Origin: a virus
Taxonomy: Duplodnaviria; Heunggongvirae; Uroviricota; Caudoviricetes
DNA length: 7,327 nt
Virus record (IMG/VR): IMGVR_UViG_2778261418_000025
Span: 1 to 7,327 of that record
Direction: 5' to 3' (one strand)
This document shows positions 1 through 7,327 of the stretch, one piece after another (the first letter of the stretch is position 1; every line of letters begins with the position of its first letter). The notes under the pieces were generated by a model. The model did not search any database, was not told the DNA's origin, and saw only the letters and a program-made list of their open reading frames with translations. Made by a program: the position numbers and the translations under genes.

Positions 1-333
1 TTACTGGCAGGCTTTTTGTCCAATGTAGTATGCAATTGAGCGGTCAACTATAGGGGCCATATTTGGATCTGGTGCTGAGTTATTCATCTGCTCGATGGTC
101 TCACCGTCTCCAAGATATTTAACTGTCCCGGCAGTACAGTCGTACAGCCGCTTTGAATATGATGTTCCAGACGGCCCCTTTCTTTCAGTTGTTATAGTAG
201 CCATGCTGCCGTCGCGAGTCTTATCTAAAATCGTGTAACTAGCCTTCGTATCTGTTGGCACATAAACAACCTCAGCCGCAAACACATTAAATGAAACTGC
301 TGCCCCTACAGCTAATATAATGAAATTTTTCAT
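1..333 (-). CDS. Small secreted protein of unknown function (about 110 aa precursor with N-terminal signal peptide); cargo/moron candidate downstream of tfa
   Basis: ATG at 333..331 with AGGA about 8 nt upstream; the track ORF 1..393 starts at TTG (393) and is probably over-extended. Product begins MKNFIILAVGAAVSFNVFAAEVV (basic residue, hydrophobic core, AxA-like site, no lipobox Cys). Two Cys in the mature part. Stop codon at 1..3. Region looks AT-richer than the rest by eye. Confidence 0.55.
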   Translation of the reverse strand: MKNFIILAVGAAVSFNVFAAEVVYVPTDTKASYTILDKTRDGSMATITTERKGPSGTSYSKRLYDCTAGTVKYLGDGETIEQMNNSAPDPNMAPIVDRSIAYYIGQKACQ

Positions 334-370
334 ATCCCTATTCCTATCATTTGAGTATGCAATAATCCTA

Positions 371-925
371 TCAAGGAACTGAGAAAACGACAAAACCCGC
401 GTTTTGCGGGCTGTCTGGAATGGTCAGGCAATGATGTTCTGGTACTTGCTCCGGGTCTGCCATGTCTAAATCAACGGCATCCTGCAATGTGGCAATGGCG
501 TCATTGGCCTGTTTAAGCAGGCTTTTCTTTTCGGCGTCTGCCTCGCTGACTAATACAATTCGCATGGCCTCCGCATCATCCACCCACGCCTTACCATTCC
601 ATTTTTGCCAGGCATTAGCCGGTGCTAACGTGGTTGTCCCTTCCGGGTAAACACCTGGCTCGGTGATCACCAGTTCATTACCGTTTTCTGTATCAAACAC
701 CACCTCACCACGATGATCCTCACGGGAAATCCATCTTTGCTTCTCTGAATCAAAAATTGCCACAAACCCCACTTTGATTACCGGTGGTTTTATTGTTGTG
801 CAGTTGGCTGGCAGTCCAGTATGCGCAGGAATAAAAGCATCACCTGAACCAATAAATTCATTCGTGTCGGAACGCAGGTTATAAACAGTAACTGTTTGAT
901 CGGTTTCACTCATTTTAAAAGTCAT
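371..925 (-). CDS. tfa: Tail fibre assembly protein (Tfa chaperone), 184 aa
   Basis: ATG at 925..923. N-terminus [48 protein letters not shown] closely matches the lambda Tfa N-terminus as I recall it (MAFRMSE...[20 protein letters not shown]). Its ATG overlaps the stop of the upstream fibre ORF (TAATG). Confidence 0.85.
   Translation of the reverse strand: MTFKMSETDQTVTVYNLRSDTNEFIGSGDAFIPAHTGLPANCTTIKPPVIKVGFVAIFDSEKQRWISREDHRGEVVFDTENGNELVITEPGVYPEGTTTLAPANAWQKWNGKAWVDDAEAMRIVLVSEADAEKKSLLKQANDAIATLQDAVDLDMADPEQVPEHHCLTIPDSPQNAGFVVFSVP
381..410 (-). terminator. Possible weak intrinsic terminator inside the last codons of tfa
   Basis: On the minus strand: CCCGC-AAAAC-GCGGG hairpin (plus 396-410) followed by TTTTGTCGTTTTCTC. 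Stem is only 5 bp and the element lies within coding sequence. Confidence 0.25.
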
Positions 926-1404
926 TATGCGAGTCTCACTATGTAGTTAAATGCAATATTCTTAACGGTCGTTTCTGCGTTGCCCGACGCGGCGATGGTA
1001 ATGGTGTGACTGTGTGCGCCAATGGCTACGGTATGAGAGTGAGCGCCAATACCTACGGTGTGATTATGTGCGCCAATGCCAACCGTATGGGCATGTGCCC
1101 CAGTAGACGATGTTGTTGCGGTTCCAACCGTAAACCCCGTAGCCCCCGCAGCGTTGTTTCCATCACCTTTTTCTTCATTAAGTACAGGCAGCGTATGTGC
1201 ATGCGCCCCCGTTGTATTTGTCGTTTTCGTGCCATAGTCAAATGTGCTCGCCGTTTTAGTACCGTAATCAAATGAGGATGTTGATTTCGTCCCCAAATCG
1301 GTACTGGATGCACTGGCTGTGTGTGAGTGGGATTTATTGCCATCATCTTCATAGGACAAAACTTCGCGGCCGTCTGGTTTCCCTTTGATTGTCCGGCGGC
1401 GCAT
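925..1404 (-). CDS. stf: Side tail fibre protein, C-terminal (receptor-binding tip) fragment, 5'-truncated; about 159 codons from an in-frame ATG
   Basis: C-terminus ...[58 protein letters not shown] with repeated GAHxH units and duplicated FDYGTK, typical of lambda Stf / P2 H / T4 gp37-type fibre tips. Far too short for a full fibre. The track ORF 925..1599 extends upstream only by running out of frame over the gpA 3' end. In-frame ATG at 1404..1402 sits 1 nt after the gpA stop (TGAcATG). Confidence 0.7.
1000..1110. repeat. 27-bp imperfect tandem repeats (about 4 units) encoding 9-aa HTVGIGAHx repeats
   Basis: Units beginning near 1014, 1041, 1068 and 1095 (gtgcgccaat.../gagcgccaat.../gtgcgccaat.../gtgcccc) on the + strand, matching the His-x-His protein repeats of the fibre tip. 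Confidence 0.7.
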
Positions 1405-1405
1405 G

Positions 1406-2542
1406 TCAGGAATAACACCCGACGGATACGCGATGGCCAGTAAAGGATATGCGCTGCACGTCCTCTGCATACTCGTTGCCCTGTTCCGTAATTTCATAGG
1501 CCAGACGAACAACCAGATCACGGCGGGCAACCAGTGCACCGCCCTGCGCCTGGGTATATGCAGCCCAGTCCCCGACATCAGCAGCGGCCAGAACCGCATC
1601 CATTCTGCGATCGGTCAGCACCTGATCCCGCAACCGACGCAGCTCACGCCAGACAGTTACCGGCGCACCACCAATCTGCTGAAACTGACGAATACGCCAG
1701 CGTGAAGCCCATGCAGAAACGGACTTAGCCATATCACGCAGGTTTTCGCCGGTTTCTTCGTCATGCTCACCATCCAGCGCAAAACCATCAATATTTTTTG
1801 AAATGTATTTCGCGATGTAGCCCGTGGCCGAACCTTTGGCGGGATCGATAGCTTCAACATGAAAACGCGCCTTCAGCGCCTTTTCAGATTGCAGTTCTTC
1901 AGAATCGGTAATTCTGGCGTGATAGCAAAGAATATCGCGTACCGTGTCCACGTCATGCGGACGCATAAAAAGCAACATATGCCAGTGCGGTGTCCCGTCA
2001 TGGTGAGGCTCAACAACCCGAAACCCAAATACATGAATACCCGCACGCGAGATCGCTGCGCGTGCTTTTGCCCATACGCCGCATAAATAGCGCTGGGTAT
2101 CCTGCGGCGTACATCCATCCCATTGCGATACAAAGCCACCTTTGCTGTGCACTGCGTGGAAACGTGATGGCGCGGTGATGGTGTAAAACTCACCGGCCAG
2201 CCCTTCTTCATTGGCCATATCTTCAAACCCTCGCATTCTTACCATTAGTTCACATCGACGGATCGCCGGATTTGCAACGCTGCGGTGCACCATGCTGTCC
2301 AGTGCAATGCGCAGCCCCTCATCATTCAGCAGATCAAACTTTTTAAAGAACTCCAGATTCCGCTTTTTCTGGTCTATCCATTCGTCCAGTGTTTTGCGGG
2401 ATACATAAGCGCTGGCCGCTTTTTGTACCTGTCCCACCGCGATGGCCATATGTTCGCGCTGCATATCACGCGCACGTTTAAGACGTAGGTACCACCATTC
2501 CGGCGCCATCATGCGCAGTATCCCGGATTCCGCCTTACGCAT
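1406..2542 (-). CDS. A: Rolling-circle replication initiator gpA (P2 A family HUH endonuclease), internal fragment lacking expected N- and C-terminal regions
   Basis: Contains [17 protein letters not shown] (HUH-type metal site) and [13 protein letters not shown] (paired catalytic Tyr), hallmarks of P2 gpA / phiX174 A-type initiators. At 378 aa it is about half the length I recall for P2 A. The frame is open only 15 codons upstream of the ATG at 2542 (stop at 2588-2590), and the ORF ends by abutting the fibre fragment. Confidence 0.75.
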
Positions 2543-3204
2543 TTCCAGTTGACCTTCATTGGCCTCATGTTCAGCCCAGTACCGCGCTCATGGTAAGCGG
2601 TGAAATTGTCGCTTTCAGTCAGATAAGGCGGATCACAGTAAACAACGTCATTCCCGTCCCGAACCAAATCGAGCGTTTCTGAATAGTGGGCAGTAATGAA
2701 CGTTGCGCGTTTCGCTTTTTCAGCAAAGGCACGGATTTCATCAGCGGGAAAATAAGGCTTTTTGTACTTACCGAACGGGACGTTGAACTGGCCTCGGCGA
2801 TTATACCGGCACAGGCCATTGAAGCAGTGGCGATTCAGGTACAGGAAACGCGCAGCATTTTCAACAGATTCAGAACCGGCCTTACCACCAGAAAGATTGA
2901 AAGCATCACGCACTGCGTAATAGAAAATGGCACGGCTTTCTTCATCACCTAACGAACCGGCAGTAAACAGGATCTCCAGCTCATTCAGCAGCGCATCAGT
3001 GTGATACGCCATCGCCTTATAAAGATTAACCAGATCAGGATTCACATCTGCGATCAGATACTCGTCATAATCCGTATTCATCATGACAGCGCAGGAACCT
3101 GCGAACGGTTCAACCAGGCGTTTACCTTCTGGAAGGTGCGGACGCAGCATAGGCATAATGCGGGCTTTGCTGCCCACCCATTTAAGCGGAGTTTTTATTG
3201 CCAT
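2509..3204 (-). CDS. dam: DNA adenine methyltransferase (Dam family), 3'-disrupted: native sequence to about 2588, then about 25 out-of-frame codons
   Basis: ATG at 3204..3202 with AAGG upstream; the track ORF starts at TTG 3225. Product MAIKTPLKWVGSKARIM...LVEPFAGSCAVMMNTDY...LYLNRHCFNGLCRYNRRGQFNVPFGKYKKPYFPADE...VVYCDPPYLTESDNFTAYHE parallels E. coli Dam through the DPPY motif. The following tail ([25 protein letters not shown]) uses rare codons (AGG, CGG, GGA) and ends where E. coli Dam would continue about 70 aa. Confidence 0.8.
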   Translation of the reverse strand: MAIKTPLKWVGSKARIMPMLRPHLPEGKRLVEPFAGSCAVMMNTDYDEYLIADVNPDLVNLYKAMAYHTDALLNELEILFTAGSLGDEESRAIFYYAVRDAFNLSGGKAGSESVENAARFLYLNRHCFNGLCRYNRRGQFNVPFGKYKKPYFPADEIRAFAEKAKRATFITAHYSETLDLVRDGNDVVYCDPPYLTESDNFTAYHERGTGLNMRPMKVNWKCVRRNPGYCA

Positions 3205-3428
3205 GCCGCACCGCCTTTGCTGCAAATCGCCGCGGCTTCTTCGCGGATCAACTCAACGATTTCCGTTGCGCTTAAACCTTCATTGGCTGCATGGGTGGCC
3301 AGCTTATTCAGACGGGTGGAACACAAATCAGCAGCAGCGGCTTTACCTTCCTGCGTGGCTTTGGTGAGCATTGCCAGCAGGTCAGTGACTGATTTTGTTG
3401 CGGGTAAATCCTGACGTGTCATATGCAT
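3195..3428 (-). CDS. Hypothetical Ala-rich 77-aa protein, translationally coupled to dam
   Basis: ATG at 3428 with AAGGA 7 nt upstream. Its stop overlaps the dam start by 10 nt (ATGGCAATAA). No recognisable motif. Confidence 0.5.
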   Translation of the reverse strand: MHMTRQDLPATKSVTDLLAMLTKATQEGKAAAADLCSTRLNKLATHAANEGLSATEIVELIREEAAAICSKGGAAWQ

Positions 3429-3495
3429 TTTGGTTTCCTTAAGGCAAAAGAATCCCCGGCCACTTGAAACATGGCCAAAAAATTCAGGCGGTTAA

Positions 3496-3897
3496 TTAGT
3501 GAAAAGTGGGGTGTACTGTGGCAGCTGAGTAGTTCGGTACCGGAATCAGGTGCAGTTCATAGGTTGTCCGCCACCACTCCTGGATCAGTGCATTTATCTC
3601 GCCAACTCCCAGCGCCCCGGCTGTATAGAAAATCGCACGAATCCCCGCCAGCGCTTCTATCTGGGCTTCTTTGCTTTCCGCTTCGCGATACACGCAGCAC
3701 CAGAAAGCGGCATTGATCGCCAGCCAGTGACGCGGATTCGTCATGTGCTCGGTGTCATTGAAGAAGAACGGATGCAAAGCGATGCGGCCATTTTTACTGG
3801 TGCTTTTCTCTGTAAACACTACAGCGTAGTTATGCGGGACACCCCACACAGCCAGTTCAGCCCCCAACGATTTACCCTCAACGGAAATAATGGTCAT
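3496..3897 (-). CDS. Hypothetical early-operon protein, 133 aa
   Basis: ATG at 3897..3895 overlaps the stop of the upstream ORF (TAATG). Coding-like codon usage. No recognisable motif. Confidence 0.55.
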   Translation of the reverse strand: MTIISVEGKSLGAELAVWGVPHNYAVVFTEKSTSKNGRIALHPFFFNDTEHMTNPRHWLAINAAFWCCVYREAESKEAQIEALAGIRAIFYTAGALGVGEINALIQEWWRTTYELHLIPVPNYSAATVHPTFH

Positions 3898-4325
3898 TAG
3901 TGATTCCCCTGTTGCTGGAACTTATGGACGATATGAGGTGCAATCACCATCTGTACCCCACTACTGCTATAAATTGGATGTGCCTTTTTGATCGGGCGGT
4001 TCGCGGTGCGCTTTGAAAAATCGCTGTCACGTAAACTGCCGAAACCTTCAAACGTTAACCGCGCCCGTGAAATGCCCTGGCGCAGTTGAATCATGTCCCG
4101 ATAGCCCAGGCGTTCATAAATCTCACGCCAGCAACATTTGCTTAAGTGGGCTTTAAATGCCCCGGAACCAGAAGTAACCGCAGCAGCATGAAGCACCACG
4201 CCGCGCCACTCCGGTGTTAAGTTGTCCCACCATTCAGCGGCCTCGCTGCTTTCGTTGAAGTATTTGCGGCGGATCTGTTTTAAATGCTCCAGCCCGCGCT
4301 TTTGCTGTTCCTGGCTAATCGCCAT
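3897..4325 (-). CDS. Hypothetical early-operon protein, about 142 aa from ATG 4325 (track gives 207 aa from a GTG at 4520)
   Basis: ATG at 4325..4323 preceded by GGGGG 4 nt upstream. The 65 codons upstream in the same frame contain several rare codons (AGG, AGA x2, ATA, GGG) and overlap a better-looking 57-aa ORF in another frame, so the long GTG-initiated model is probably an over-extension. Confidence 0.5.
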   Translation of the reverse strand: MAISQEQQKRGLEHLKQIRRKYFNESSEAAEWWDNLTPEWRGVVLHAAAVTSGSGAFKAHLSKCCWREIYERLGYRDMIQLRQGISRARLTFEGFGSLRDSDFSKRTANRPIKKAHPIYSSSGVQMVIAPHIVHKFQQQGNH

Positions 4326-4333
4326 AACGCCCC

Positions 4334-4507
4334 CTATAGTCCCATCAGACGACGCCACCACGGGCGGCGCGGCTGCTGGCCATTGAATTTGTACATGTGG
4401 CCAGGGTTCCAGCGCTGACCGTTTGGCAGTTCTATCCAGCCCGTTGAACCACTCGGCAACTGCATGGCTGGTGATTCTTTTTTCAGGTAAGTGACAAACG
4501 CTTTCAT
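4334..4507 (-). CDS. Small hypothetical protein, 57 aa (MKAFVTYLKKESPAMQLPSGSTGWIELPNGQRWNPGHMYKFNGQQPRRPWWRRLMGL), not in the supplied ORF track
   Basis: ATG at 4507..4505 with GAGGGA 6 nt upstream, 9 nt after the cII stop. Codon usage is typical (CTG, CCG, CGC, CGT, CAG, GGC). Stop TAG at 4336..4334 overlaps the SD of the next gene. Confidence 0.5.
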   Translation of the reverse strand: MKAFVTYLKKESPAMQLPSGSTGWIELPNGQRWNPGHMYKFNGQQPRRPWWRRLMGL

Positions 4508-4516
4508 GGTGTTCCC

Positions 4517-5020
4517 TCACATCAGGCCGGTGGCGTTGGTTGTGACCAGCTCCACCGCCGCAGCCAGAACAGGCGCAGAGTGAATACGGCTTTCAACGGT
4601 ATAAGCCAGCACGGATAAGCTACGGATTGCATCGCGGGCACGATCCAGAATTTGAGTACGGCGGGCGGCAGTCATATAGCCAGTTGATACGGCTTCCCCA
4701 GCAATCGCGCCCACACTGGCTGTGGCACTCAGTGCGCACAACTGCATGTTGCCTTCTGTGGCATTGTTCACCGGCACGGATGGAAGGCAGTTAATCTGAC
4801 CTAACATCCCATCAAGCAAACGCGCATCTTCGGTGTAATCCGTGATAGCCAAAAGCTCATCACAGGTCAGGCGGTGCGGTTGTGCTGGGTTCAGTTTGTT
4901 GCGCAGGATCTGCGGCCTCATACCAACGGCAGCGGCCACATCTTCAAGATTGTGCTCAATTGCAAATGCTCGGCAAGCCGCATCAAAGTGCGCATGTTTA
5001 GAGGTCTGGTAATCAAACAT
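4517..5020 (-). CDS. cII: CII-like transcriptional activator of lysogeny (phage 186 CII family), 167 aa
   Basis: MFDYQTSKHAHFDAACRAFAIEHN...GMRPQILRNKLNPAQPHRLTCDELLAITDYTEDARLLDGMLGQINCLP matches my recollection of 186 CII (MFDFQVSKHPHYDEACRAFA...GMRPQVLRNKLNPEQPH...). ATG at 5020 with GGGAGAGG 6 nt upstream. Confidence 0.8.
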   Translation of the reverse strand: MFDYQTSKHAHFDAACRAFAIEHNLEDVAAAVGMRPQILRNKLNPAQPHRLTCDELLAITDYTEDARLLDGMLGQINCLPSVPVNNATEGNMQLCALSATASVGAIAGEAVSTGYMTAARRTQILDRARDAIRSLSVLAYTVESRIHSAPVLAAAVELVTTNATGLM

Positions 5021-5050
5021 TGTTTGCCTCTCCCGAATCCGTAGGATGGA

Positions 5051-5272
5051 TTACGCGTTAAGCGAAATGTCACATTCGCTTAAAGCCTGAATAGTGAGCG
5101 CGGCCATGTTGACTTCGACCAAGCCTTTCTTCTGCTTACCCTTCGGCTTAATAGGTAATTTCCCGTATTCGATCAGGTTCCTGGCGGTTTCTTTGTTGGT
5201 ACCAGTACGGCGGCAATACTCGTCTAAAGGCAGGTATGGCTCAGGGATGATGATTGTAATGTTCGGACGCAT
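5051..5272 (-). CDS. apl: Apl/Cox-like small DNA-binding protein (excision directionality and lytic-switch regulator), 73 aa from ATG 5272
   Basis: First gene of the leftward operon facing cI, the position of 186 apl / P2 cox. Small and basic (MRPNITIIIPEPYLPLDEYCRRTGTNKETARNLIEYGKLPIKPKGKQKKGLVEV...). ATG 5272 has GGAG 8 nt upstream; the track start at 5305 is a TTG. Assignment is by synteny and size, not recognised sequence. Confidence 0.5.
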   Translation of the reverse strand: MRPNITIIIPEPYLPLDEYCRRTGTNKETARNLIEYGKLPIKPKGKQKKGLVEVNMAALTIQALSECDISLNA

Positions 5273-5343
5273 GAGGCAAACTCCACAAGTTAACCTGTAC
5301 GGCAATACAGGGTTATATAAGGCAACATTCGAAATATGGAGCC

Positions 5344-5372
5344 AGATTAATTCGCGTTTCGAGAAGTGTCAA
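5344..5372 (-). promoter_or_regulatory. Candidate lytic promoter (pR-like) for the apl-cII operon
   Basis: Minus strand: -35 TTGACA (plus 5372..5367), 17-bp spacer, -10 TAATCT (plus 5349..5344), about 65 nt upstream of the apl ATG. The -10 is a weak match, so the exact hexamer is uncertain. Confidence 0.45.
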
Positions 5373-5393
5373 TTTTAATTTCTCGAATCGAGA
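5357..5393. promoter_or_regulatory. Candidate operator: inverted repeats bracketing the -35 element
   Basis: TTCGAGAA (5358-5365) and its exact reverse complement TTCTCGAA (5380-5387) flank the -35, with a second palindrome TCTCGA-a-TCGAGA at 5381-5393. Three TCGAGA-type hexamers lie within 36 bp. Confidence 0.4.
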
Positions 5394-5407
5394 CTTATGG
5401 ATTCGCT

Positions 5408-5989
5408 ATGAGCACATTTAAAATCGACCTAAACGTAGATAGCACACCGATTCTTGACAGGGTGATCGAGGCTTACGGATTTACGCAGAAGTTACAGCTC
5501 GCGGAACATCTGGACATGGCAGCCAGTTCTCTTTCTTCACGCTACAAGCGTGGAGTTTTCCCGGCAGACATTGTCGTGAAATGTGTAGCCGAAACAGGCG
5601 CTAATCTGGAGTGGCTGGCGACAGGACAGGGACGTAAATTTAATGATGATGAATTAGACATACTCAAAATACCGCGCAGCAAGATTGTTGATGGCCAACT
5701 CTATGACGCTGGCACACTTATGCTTGATAAAGTCATCTTCCTGCCTGGTAAGCCCTTACCGCAACAACCGATTTGTGTTCTGGATGGCCTTGTTCAGTAC
5801 ATTGTTGACCAGTCTTATTCTGAAGTTTATGACGATGATTGGTTGGTTGAAGTTGAAGGAAAAACAAGCGTCCGCACTCTTACACGGATTCCGGTACGAA
5901 AAGTCAGAGTTAGCGGTGTTGGTATGGCATTTGATTGCGGAATTGACGACATAAAAATCATAGGCCGCGTTGTTCTGACGATAAAATAA
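5408..5989 (+). CDS. cI: CI-like immunity repressor (phage 186 CI family), 193 aa from ATG 5408
   Basis: MSTFKIDLNVDSTPILDRVIEAYGFTQKLQLAEHLDMAASSLSSRYKRGVFPADIVVKCVAETGANLEWLATGQG matches my recollection of 186 CI (VLDRICEAYGFSQKIQLANHFDIASSSLSNRYTRG...ETGANLQWLLTGEG). C-terminus ...FDCGIDDIKIIGRVV also parallels 186 CI. The track start at 5366 is a GTG with no SD. Confidence 0.85.
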   Translation: MSTFKIDLNVDSTPILDRVIEAYGFTQKLQLAEHLDMAASSLSSRYKRGVFPADIVVKCVAETGANLEWLATGQGRKFNDDELDILKIPRSKIVDGQLYDAGTLMLDKVIFLPGKPLPQQPICVLDGLVQYIVDQSYSEVYDDDWLVEVEGKTSVRTLTRIPVRKVRVSGVGMAFDCGIDDIKIIGRVVLTIK

Positions 5990-5990
5990 A

Positions 5991-7031
5991 ATGAGCGTTC
6001 GTAAACTTCCTACAGGCGAATGGATCGCCGACTTCTACACCGTCAACCGCAGTAATGGCAAGAACGGGAAGCGTATACGTAAAAAATTTGCCACGAAAGG
6101 GGAAGCCCTGGCATTCGAAAACCATACGCTTCAGAAAGTAGACGCAGCTCCGTGGCTGGGTGAAGGGAAGGACAAGCGAACTTTAATAGATCTGATAACA
6201 ATGTGGTATGAACGCCACGGCGTAGCTTTGAGCAATGGCGAAAAGCGTAAAAATGCTATGACCTGGGCGGCGGAATGCATGGGATTCCCGCTGGCCACAG
6301 AATTTAATGCCCAGTTGTTCACAGCCTACCGCGCTAAAAGGCTGGATGGGCATTATGCCCGTACCAACAGAGTATCTAAGGTTTCCCCGAAAACTATGAA
6401 CCTTGAACATGCTTACTTCCTGGCTATGTTCAACGAGCTGAAACGGATTGGTGAATGGTCAGCACCCAACCCACTAGAAAACGTCAGACAGTATCGTACT
6501 GATGAAACCGAAATGGCTTTCCTCACTACCGAAGAAATTGATCGGCTTTTACTGGAATGCAAACGAAGTAAAGTTAAGTACCTAGAATTAGTTGTCAAAA
6601 TCTGCCTTGCTACCGGCGCAAGGTGGAATGAGGCGGCAACGCTGAAAAGCTCCCAGATCGCCGGGGGTAAAGTCACGTTCGTCAAAACCAAAGGGAAGCG
6701 CAACAGAACAATTCCCCTTGATGATGAACTTCTGTCCGAATTACCTGAAACAAAAGGCGCTCTGTTCCCCAAGCCCTGCTACAACGCTTTCCGCTCTGCT
6801 CTGGAACGTGCAGGCATTGAACTCCCCTCCGGCCAGCTTACCCATGTACTGCGCCATACATTTGCCAGCCACTTTATGATGAACGGCGGAAACATTCTGG
6901 TTCTGCAAAAAATTCTCGGCCACGCTGACATCACTATGACAATGCGTTATGCCCATTTCGCCCCAAGCCACCTTGAAGATGCCGTGCGACTTAACCCCTT
7001 AAAATGTCGCAAAAATGTCGCGACAGCTTAG
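5991..7031 (+). CDS. int: Tyrosine site-specific integrase (P2/186 Int family), 346 aa
   Basis: N-terminus MSVRKLPTGEWIADFYTVNRSNGKNGKRIRKKF resembles P2 Int (MAIKKLDDGRYEVDIRPTGRNGKRIRRKF, recalled). Catalytic motifs present: TGARWNEA, HVLRHTFASHF, LGHADITMTMRYAHF. ATG lies 1 nt after the cI stop (TAAaATG). Confidence 0.9.
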   Translation: MSVRKLPTGEWIADFYTVNRSNGKNGKRIRKKFATKGEALAFENHTLQKVDAAPWLGEGKDKRTLIDLITMWYERHGVALSNGEKRKNAMTWAAECMGFPLATEFNAQLFTAYRAKRLDGHYARTNRVSKVSPKTMNLEHAYFLAMFNELKRIGEWSAPNPLENVRQYRTDETEMAFLTTEEIDRLLLECKRSKVKYLELVVKICLATGARWNEAATLKSSQIAGGKVTFVKTKGKRNRTIPLDDELLSELPETKGALFPKPCYNAFRSALERAGIELPSGQLTHVLRHTFASHFMMNGGNILVLQKILGHADITMTMRYAHFAPSHLEDAVRLNPLKCRKNVATA

Positions 7032-7198: not shown

Positions 7199-7327
7199 AT
7201 GAATGAGTTCAAGAGGTGTATGCGCGTGTTTAGTCATTCTCCCTTTAAAGTACGGTTAATGCTGCTCTCTATGTTGTGCGATATGGTCAACAACAAACCG
7301 CAGCAAGATAAACCTTCCGATAAATAG
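7199..7327 (+). CDS. Small ORF, 42 aa (MNEFKRCMRVFSHSPFKVRLMLLSMLCDMVNNKPQQDKPSDK), unknown function
   Basis: Consensus SD AGGAGG (7189-7194) 4 nt before the ATG at 7199; stop TAG at 7325-7327. Too short to appear in the ORF track. May lie outside the prophage. Confidence 0.4.
   Translation: MNEFKRCMRVFSHSPFKVRLMLLSMLCDMVNNKPQQDKPSDK

Follow-up and report, generated by a model that had tools for sequence, protein, structure and literature searches.

Recruitment of the host replicative helicase by the P2-type phages is poorly understood. The GenBank record of P2 describes its gene B as 'essential; DNA replication; required for lagging strand synthesis', and the interaction between B and DnaB is the subject named in the title of Odegrip et al. 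2000, as cited in PMC11087808 and PMC12661323. The B protein (gpB) has few recognised relatives and its mechanism is only partly known; B mutants of P2 accumulate single-stranded tails. The gene order in P2 is cox-orf78-B-terminator-orf80, where orf80 encodes a DUF2732 protein, and the corresponding order in phage 186 is cII-fil-dhr-tR1-DUF2732, where dhr stands for depression of host replication. Small loaders made of a helical N-terminal domain and a disordered tail have been described elsewhere, i.e. G39P of SPP1 and the Vibrio phage-derived VdhL1/2 (PMC11087808). P2 also has a known defence hotspot, which lies between gpA and gpQ (PMC9122126).

Position of the pair in the early operon

We analysed a window of 7,327 nucleotides, in which a P2/186-type prophage, inserted beside mntS, has its immunity and early region (Table 1). 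The mntS gene adjoining the prophage matches the intact relatives, e.g. the mntS-opgE-ompX neighbourhood in Escherichia coli strain 1919D3. The leftward early operon is on the minus strand and begins with an apl/cox-like gene, and the order of the minus-strand genes is cII-fil-ORF142-ORF133-hairpin-DUF2732-dam-A. The original prediction of two early-operon genes with overlapping stop and start codons is borne out for ORF142 and ORF133, which are on the minus strand, in the early lytic operon, and overlap in TAATG at 3897. It had put them between cII and dam/A. They do lie between these genes but abut neither, fil being directly upstream and the DUF2732 gene, the counterpart of P2 orf80 and of the 186 DUF2732 gene, directly downstream. 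Since fil and the DUF2732 gene had been overlooked, the slot of P2 B and 186 dhr was missed; the slot of the pair is fixed by the downstream DUF2732 gene.

A weak terminator-like hairpin is found 15 nt past the ORF133 stop, with UUCUUUUGCC after it. It takes the position of tR1 in 186 and of the putative terminator after B in P2. Its folding energy is unexceptional (z = -0.6), hence its function as a terminator is uncertain and we keep it as a positional analogue of tR1. No promoter-like site for the pair was found in positions 3000-5500 of the window.

The fil gene of the window encodes 57 aa vs 75 aa in 186 and in ESSI2_ev129, and the Pfam and PHROG Fil profiles match it over the first ~two thirds only. 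This allele may be C-terminally truncated or frameshifted, judging from its alignment to these profiles. An identical 57-aa Fil is annotated by RefSeq in E. coli 1919D3.

The intact prophage of E. coli 1919D3 has 774 bp that are deleted in the window, with a junction near 2581-2586; the 3' part of dam and the 5' part of gene A are lost, and the two truncated ORFs flank the junction. Left of ~1448 the similarity to the intact prophage stops, and tail-fibre and tail-fibre-assembly genes stand in place of the 3' end of A. This left part of the window is not covered in its best-matching place by any complete E. coli genome of our collection. With gene A broken by the deletion and by this second rearrangement, the prophage is a defective remnant. 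Over 3400-4600, a stretch that includes the pair, the window does not differ from the copies in intact prophages (100% identity); in E. coli 1919D3 the pair is at 3,077,500-3,078,329 of NZ_CP046006. Because gene A is broken, the pair is unable to contribute to phage replication in this host, and because this prophage is degraded, any functional inference concerns the phage lineage.

Table 1. Features of the window, with positions counted from its first nucleotide
Feature	Position	Strand	Remarks
130-aa ORF	1-393		no Pfam match
Tail-fibre assembly gene	371-925		PF02413
Tail-fibre gene fragment	925-1599		PF03335; His-rich GAHxHTV repeats
N-terminally truncated A ORF	1406-2542	-	flanks the deletion junction
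Truncated dam ORF	2509-3225	-	flanks the deletion junction
DUF2732 gene	3195-3428	-	directly downstream of the pair
Weak terminator-like hairpin	3453-3481	-	past the ORF133 stop
ORF133 CDS	3496-3897	-	ATG 3897 to 3499, stop 3498-3496; 133 aa; phrog_3935
TAATG overlap of ORF142 stop and ORF133 start	3895-3899	-	base 3897 common to both genes
ORF142 CDS	3897-4325	-	ATG 4325, last codon 3900, TAA 3899-3897; 142 aa; phrog_33841
Basic C-terminal tail of ORF142	3900-4049	-	residues 93-142; low-confidence model
Putative gpB-like helical domain of ORF142	4050-4298	-	residues ~10-92
fil	4334-4507	-	57 aa; Phage_186_Fil, PF10893; directly upstream of ORF142
cII	4517-5020	-	PF06892
CI repressor		+	
Integrase	5991-7031	+	
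mntS	7199-7327	+	right end of the window

Conservation and pairing of the two genes

The ATG at 4325 is the real start of ORF142, because its homologs all begin MAIS.. and have lengths of 141-146 aa. We rejected a 207-aa version with a GTG start (3897-4520), as its upstream part is fil read in another frame. AGGGG-type Shine-Dalgarno sequences precede both starts (CTATAGGGGGCGTTATG and CAGGGGAATCACTAATG), and the one of ORF142 is overlapped by the TAG stop of fil. The CC-W and WCC strings pointed out originally are present as KCCW at residues 63-66 of ORF142 and as WCC at residues 66-68 of ORF133. The predicted products carry complementary charges: ORF142 is a basic 16-kDa protein with pI 9.95, and ORF133 a mildly acidic 15-kDa protein with pI 6.13.

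We collected 105 homolog clusters for ORF142 and 93 for ORF133 at the 90% identity level, all from Enterobacteriaceae and all labelled hypothetical. The junction between the two genes reads TAATG or TGATG in ~76 of the 83 related viral loci, and ORF133 has a length of exactly 133 aa in all but one of these loci. Measured against the window copy, ORF142 and ORF133 alike have a median dN/dS of 0.09-0.10. ORF142 and ORF133 are real genes under purifying selection.

Of 5426 complete E. coli genomes, 31 have the pair, and only 12 of 185,579 species-representative genomes have a close relative of ORF133. The carriers are ESSI-2-like Peduoviridae, i.e. Quadragintavirus, Seongnamvirus and one Yersinia phage, and the prophage hosts are Escherichia, Salmonella, Enterobacter, Citrobacter, Klebsiella and Cronobacter. 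A survey of gene-pair conservation, as had been suggested, found the two genes adjacent throughout: an ORF142-like gene ends at the ORF133 start in all of the 83 viral and 12 bacterial loci, which were retrieved via a close ORF133 homolog.

A profile search of 1.84 billion representative proteins gave 39 relatives of ORF142. The most distant of these (23-27% identity) have the context cII-fil-X-Y-DUF2732-A, and a clear ORF133 homolog directly follows four of the six that were looked up (E-values of 1e-10 to 1e-47, the weakest being a gene that ends at a contig edge and others in the range of 1e-40 to 1e-47). Among the distant phages ORF133 is better conserved than ORF142, with ~45-50% vs 23-27% identity. 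We found no ORF133 without a gpB-like gene upstream, either in the 95 close loci (95/95) or in the distant and Vibrio cases. On the other hand, gpB-like genes are found without ORF133 in Yen31.17, C5a and L174, so ORF133 is dispensable to gpB-like function in general.

Many viral contigs have a mosaic pair, in which ORF133 is 92-95% but ORF142 78-80% identical to the window copy. In these loci the dS of the two genes is also clearly different (about 1.2-1.4 vs 0.3-0.9). The differing divergence of the two genes points to recombination joints at or near the gene junction.

Relationships of ORF142 and ORF133

Both proteins had been described as unrecognised, and this holds for Pfam, NCBIfam, PADLOC and PDB sequence searches, where neither ORF142 nor ORF133 has a match. 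The description does not extend to the PHROGs, in which both families are already catalogued: ORF142 matches only phrog_33841, and ORF133 matches phrog_3935 with a weak link to phrog_18099, all with function not assigned. Nor does it extend to the ORF142 lineage as a whole, a member of which is already annotated as 'replication protein GpB' in Yersinia phage vB_YenM_324. This annotation gave us the lead to gpB through synteny, as the gene in question precedes the ORF133 homolog of that phage; its product matches ORF142 in BLASTP with 30% identity (E 1e-9). The Pfam scan of distant relatives was empty, and PDB sequence-profile searches using the ORF142, ORF133, extended ORF142 and gpB alignments gave chance-level matches only, with no solved structure for gpB among them.

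A direct sequence comparison between ORF142 and P2 gpB gave no match. HMMER alone did not link the two families, the gpB HMM finding no ORF142-like ORF, and a locus search with P2 gpB returned near-identical P2 copies only. Profile comparisons do connect them. Residues ~11-83 of P2 gpB match phrog_14551 (1e-11), phrog_602 (1e-9) and phrog_5349 (2e-5), and the distant ORF142 relatives match phrog_33841, phrog_5349 and phrog_14551 with E-values of similar size, in the profile columns that gpB also covers. The hhalign comparison of the extended ORF142 family with the gpB family gave E 2e-4 and 46% probability over 72 collinear columns, with ORF142 residues ~26-108 opposite gpB residues ~29-102, and the motifs ..R..[VL]..HA.L.. 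and ..[FW]..[ML]......L...I..LR..F are common to both. Several proteins fall between the two families: for gp15 of Pseudoalteromonas phage C5a the probabilities are 94% (E 1e-7) with the ORF142 family and 87% (E 4e-6) with the gpB family, for gp08 of Vibrio phage PV94 they are 90% and 59%, and for the GpB of Yersinia phage 31.17 (Yen31.17) 25% and 97%, respectively. A control set of 18 further P2/186 proteins, early or accessory, gave a probability of at most 1.5%, and gpB was the sole signal. The homology rests on these intermediates, since the direct signal is weak (46%) and HMMER gives no link. On this profile evidence, homology between the helical N-terminal domain of ORF142 and the N-terminal half of gpB is, in our view, quite probable. 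The description of the pair as unrecognised thus needs revision in part for ORF142, whose homology to the characterised P2 early protein gpB is remote rather than clear, and stands for ORF133.

ORF142 belongs outside the gpB family proper, because its architecture differs and PF26815 is found in none of its 105 homolog clusters; every gpB homolog carries this domain. The ORF142 homologs reach neither the PF26815 nor the phrog_235 model. We would place ORF142 in a broader gpB-like superfamily, with which it has profile similarity, directly and through intermediates, over a common region, and a common location between the cox/apl-cII-fil switch genes and the terminator plus DUF2732 gene.

We propose from the predicted model that ORF142 consists of one gpB-like domain and a flexible basic tail. 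The conserved positions in the domain are W33, W40-R-G-V-V-L-H-A-A, W66 and G84-I. In the tail the pLDDT is below 50 for residues 95-128, and the motifs GFGSLRD.DF..RTA.RP and MVIAP are conserved only within the close family. We considered the string VQMVIAP of the tail as a beta-clamp-binding motif and rejected it, as many homologs have E in place of the Q.

P2 gpB seems to have arisen by internal tandem duplication of a gpB-like domain. Its self profile alignment places residues ~1-98 against ~56-165 (E 4e-4), and the paired repeat motifs are RLTVCFHAQL and RRTLFMHAGL (gene B, 1959-2459 of the retrieved locus). We found no description of this duplication in the accessible literature.

The AlphaFold model of ORF133 is confident (pLDDT 83.6, pTM 0.79) and shows, at the N-terminus, a small beta-alpha-alpha-beta-beta unit with a helical bundle after it. 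A Foldseek search of BFVD with this model found nothing below E 0.6 and no function-informative structural neighbour, and no relative of known function or fold was detected for phrog_3935. The profile and structure searches proposed for the pair therefore gave a remote link to gpB for ORF142 and no informative match for ORF133. We considered ORF133 as a relative of gpB, of its second repeat or of ORF142, and found no similarity; the other P2/186 early proteins including Dhr are not related to it either. Gp10 of Vibrio phage PV94 (133 aa) is a full-length remote homolog (hhalign 96%, E 2e-9). ORF133 represents a truly uncharacterised family, as the original prediction held, and its strict association with gpB-like genes is the sole functional clue. 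The original expectation of an undescribed function, with a replication helper among the candidates, is partly right: ORF142 is probably a new, single-domain form of gpB-like protein, and ORF133 is uncharacterised.

Possible roles and comparison with known systems

Our best explanation, to which we would give about an even chance, is that ORF142 and ORF133 together represent a two-gene version of the P2 'B' replication accessory, carried by ESSI-2-like temperate phages of the P2/186 type. It builds on two real and conserved genes, adjacent and overlapping in the B/dhr slot, and on the remote homology between ORF142 and gpB. On induction the early promoter would transcribe apl-cII-fil-ORF142-ORF133 up to the tR1-like hairpin. 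To judge by its homology and position, ORF142 would most likely engage the host DnaB helicase as P2 gpB does, and this could allow lagging-strand synthesis to begin on the displaced strand once the A protein has nicked the origin, the A-initiated replication in this scheme being of the rolling-circle type. The overlap of the ORF133 start with the ORF142 stop would favour co-ordinate synthesis of the two proteins. ORF133 would most likely be the partner or adaptor of ORF142 and may form a complex with it, perhaps doing the job of the second gpB-like repeat in P2. Among the roles first offered for the pair, i.e. replication helper, anti-defence function and host inhibitor, the replication helper is the best supported.

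The pair could instead be a host-takeover module that works like 186 Dhr and the neighbouring Fil, one or both proteins shutting off host DNA replication or another host process early in lytic growth, e.g. by sequestering DnaB rather than loading it for the phage. It stands after fil, exactly where 186 has dhr ('inhibits host DNA replication'), and in the first early transcription unit, before the tR1-like hairpin. A gpB-like DnaB binder could equally sequester the helicase, and the stronger conservation of ORF133 across distant phages would fit a conserved host target. However, neither protein resembles Dhr, and the one homology detected, to gpB, involves a protein with an annotated requirement in phage replication. 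We regard this reading as unlikely, and a host-takeover role and a replication-accessory role are not mutually exclusive. In decreasing order of plausibility, it is followed by an ORF133 that acts independently of ORF142 and by a toxin-antitoxin or defence pair.

An independent ORF133 might be a regulator, an anti-termination or transcription factor or an anti-defence protein, and its adjacency to ORF142 would then reflect shared expression and inheritance as a block. The gpB-like genes without ORF133, the PV94 homologs split by another gene, and the differing divergence and dS, by which the pair can be recombined apart, are all consistent with this, and the beta-alpha-alpha-beta-beta unit could be a binding module. 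Against it, ORF133 was always found with a gpB-like gene upstream, the overlapping stop and start are conserved, PADLOC gives no match, and a mildly acidic protein is unlikely to bind DNA; we consider such independence quite unlikely. The anti-defence role, also offered originally, finds no backing here, with no PADLOC match for either protein and the pair upstream of A, outside the gpA-gpQ hotspot of P2 (PMC9122126). The same observations bear on a toxin-antitoxin, abortive-infection or superinfection-exclusion pair carried as a moron. Two small, overlapping and co-conserved genes, kept intact in the degraded prophage of the window, would suit such a pair. Nevertheless, we judge it very improbable because PADLOC gives no match, nor do Pfam and NCBIfam, no promoter-like site of its own was found, the pair is inside a lytic early operon that the prophage repressor keeps off, and the known moron and defence hotspot of P2 is elsewhere. 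The homology of ORF142 to a replication protein also speaks against it.

For the two-gene variant of B, we speculate tentatively, and with rather low confidence, that ORF133 is the founding member of a group of gpB-dependent replication cofactors and that, with the single-domain gpB-like protein, it makes up a two-subunit machine for hijacking or loading DnaB. If true, the P2-type phages would have a third architectural solution to helicase loading, beside those of lambda P and of G39P/VdhL, and this could explain 186-like phages that might dispense with the host loader DnaC. Apart from this speculation, ORF133, as the invariant partner, is a concrete candidate for a new accessory factor of helicase hijacking. 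The profile evidence places ORF142 and a set of 'hypothetical' proteins of Yersinia, Vibrio and Pseudoalteromonas phages together in one gpB-like superfamily, and as P2 gpB may be a duplicated domain of this kind, the single domain offers a minimal unit to study. For annotation, two 'hypothetical protein' labels in the ESSI-2-like prophages gain a reasoned functional hypothesis.

In P2 terms, the pair sits in the slot of gene B. The 166-aa P2 gpB (PF26815, phrog_235) has apparently two gpB-like domains, whereas ORF142 would have one and a tail; P2 has no ORF133, whereas the close family of ORF142 always comes with it. In 186, the equivalent slot is held by the 66-aa Dhr. We examined Dhr (phrog_6069) as a truncated relative of ORF142 or ORF133 and rejected it, with hhalign probabilities of at most 0.4% for both and different PHROG families. 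The predicted ORF142 model, in which a compact helical part (residues 1-91) precedes a basic tail of low confidence, is comparable in architecture to G39P and VdhL1/2, and the proposed engagement of DnaB would resemble their role. We treat this likeness to G39P (PDB 1NO1) and VdhL as an analogy only, as no structural match was found.

The equivalent two-gene module of vB_YenM_324 has the order cII-fil-GpB-like-ORF133-like-small hypothetical ORF-A. Its ORF133-like protein is 49% identical to ORF133, while its GpB-like protein is shorter (124 aa) with a diverged tail, and its two genes are 9 nt apart with no overlap. The name GpB is an annotation there, with no experiment behind it, and neither 'GpB' nor 'replication protein' appears in the main text of the vB_YenM_324 paper. 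Vibrio phage PV94 encodes a gpB-like gp08 and an ORF133-like gp10, both uncharacterised, between cII and dam/A like our pair; unlike in our pair, gp09 (158 aa) intervenes between them. The gp09 protein (2809-3285 of the retrieved locus) is rich in Glu, Ala and Leu, with no Pfam match reaching the cut-off, and may provide the module of Vibrio phages with a third component. With gp08 and gp10 of PV94, the association of ORF133 with gpB-like genes therefore spans Enterobacterales and Vibrionales.
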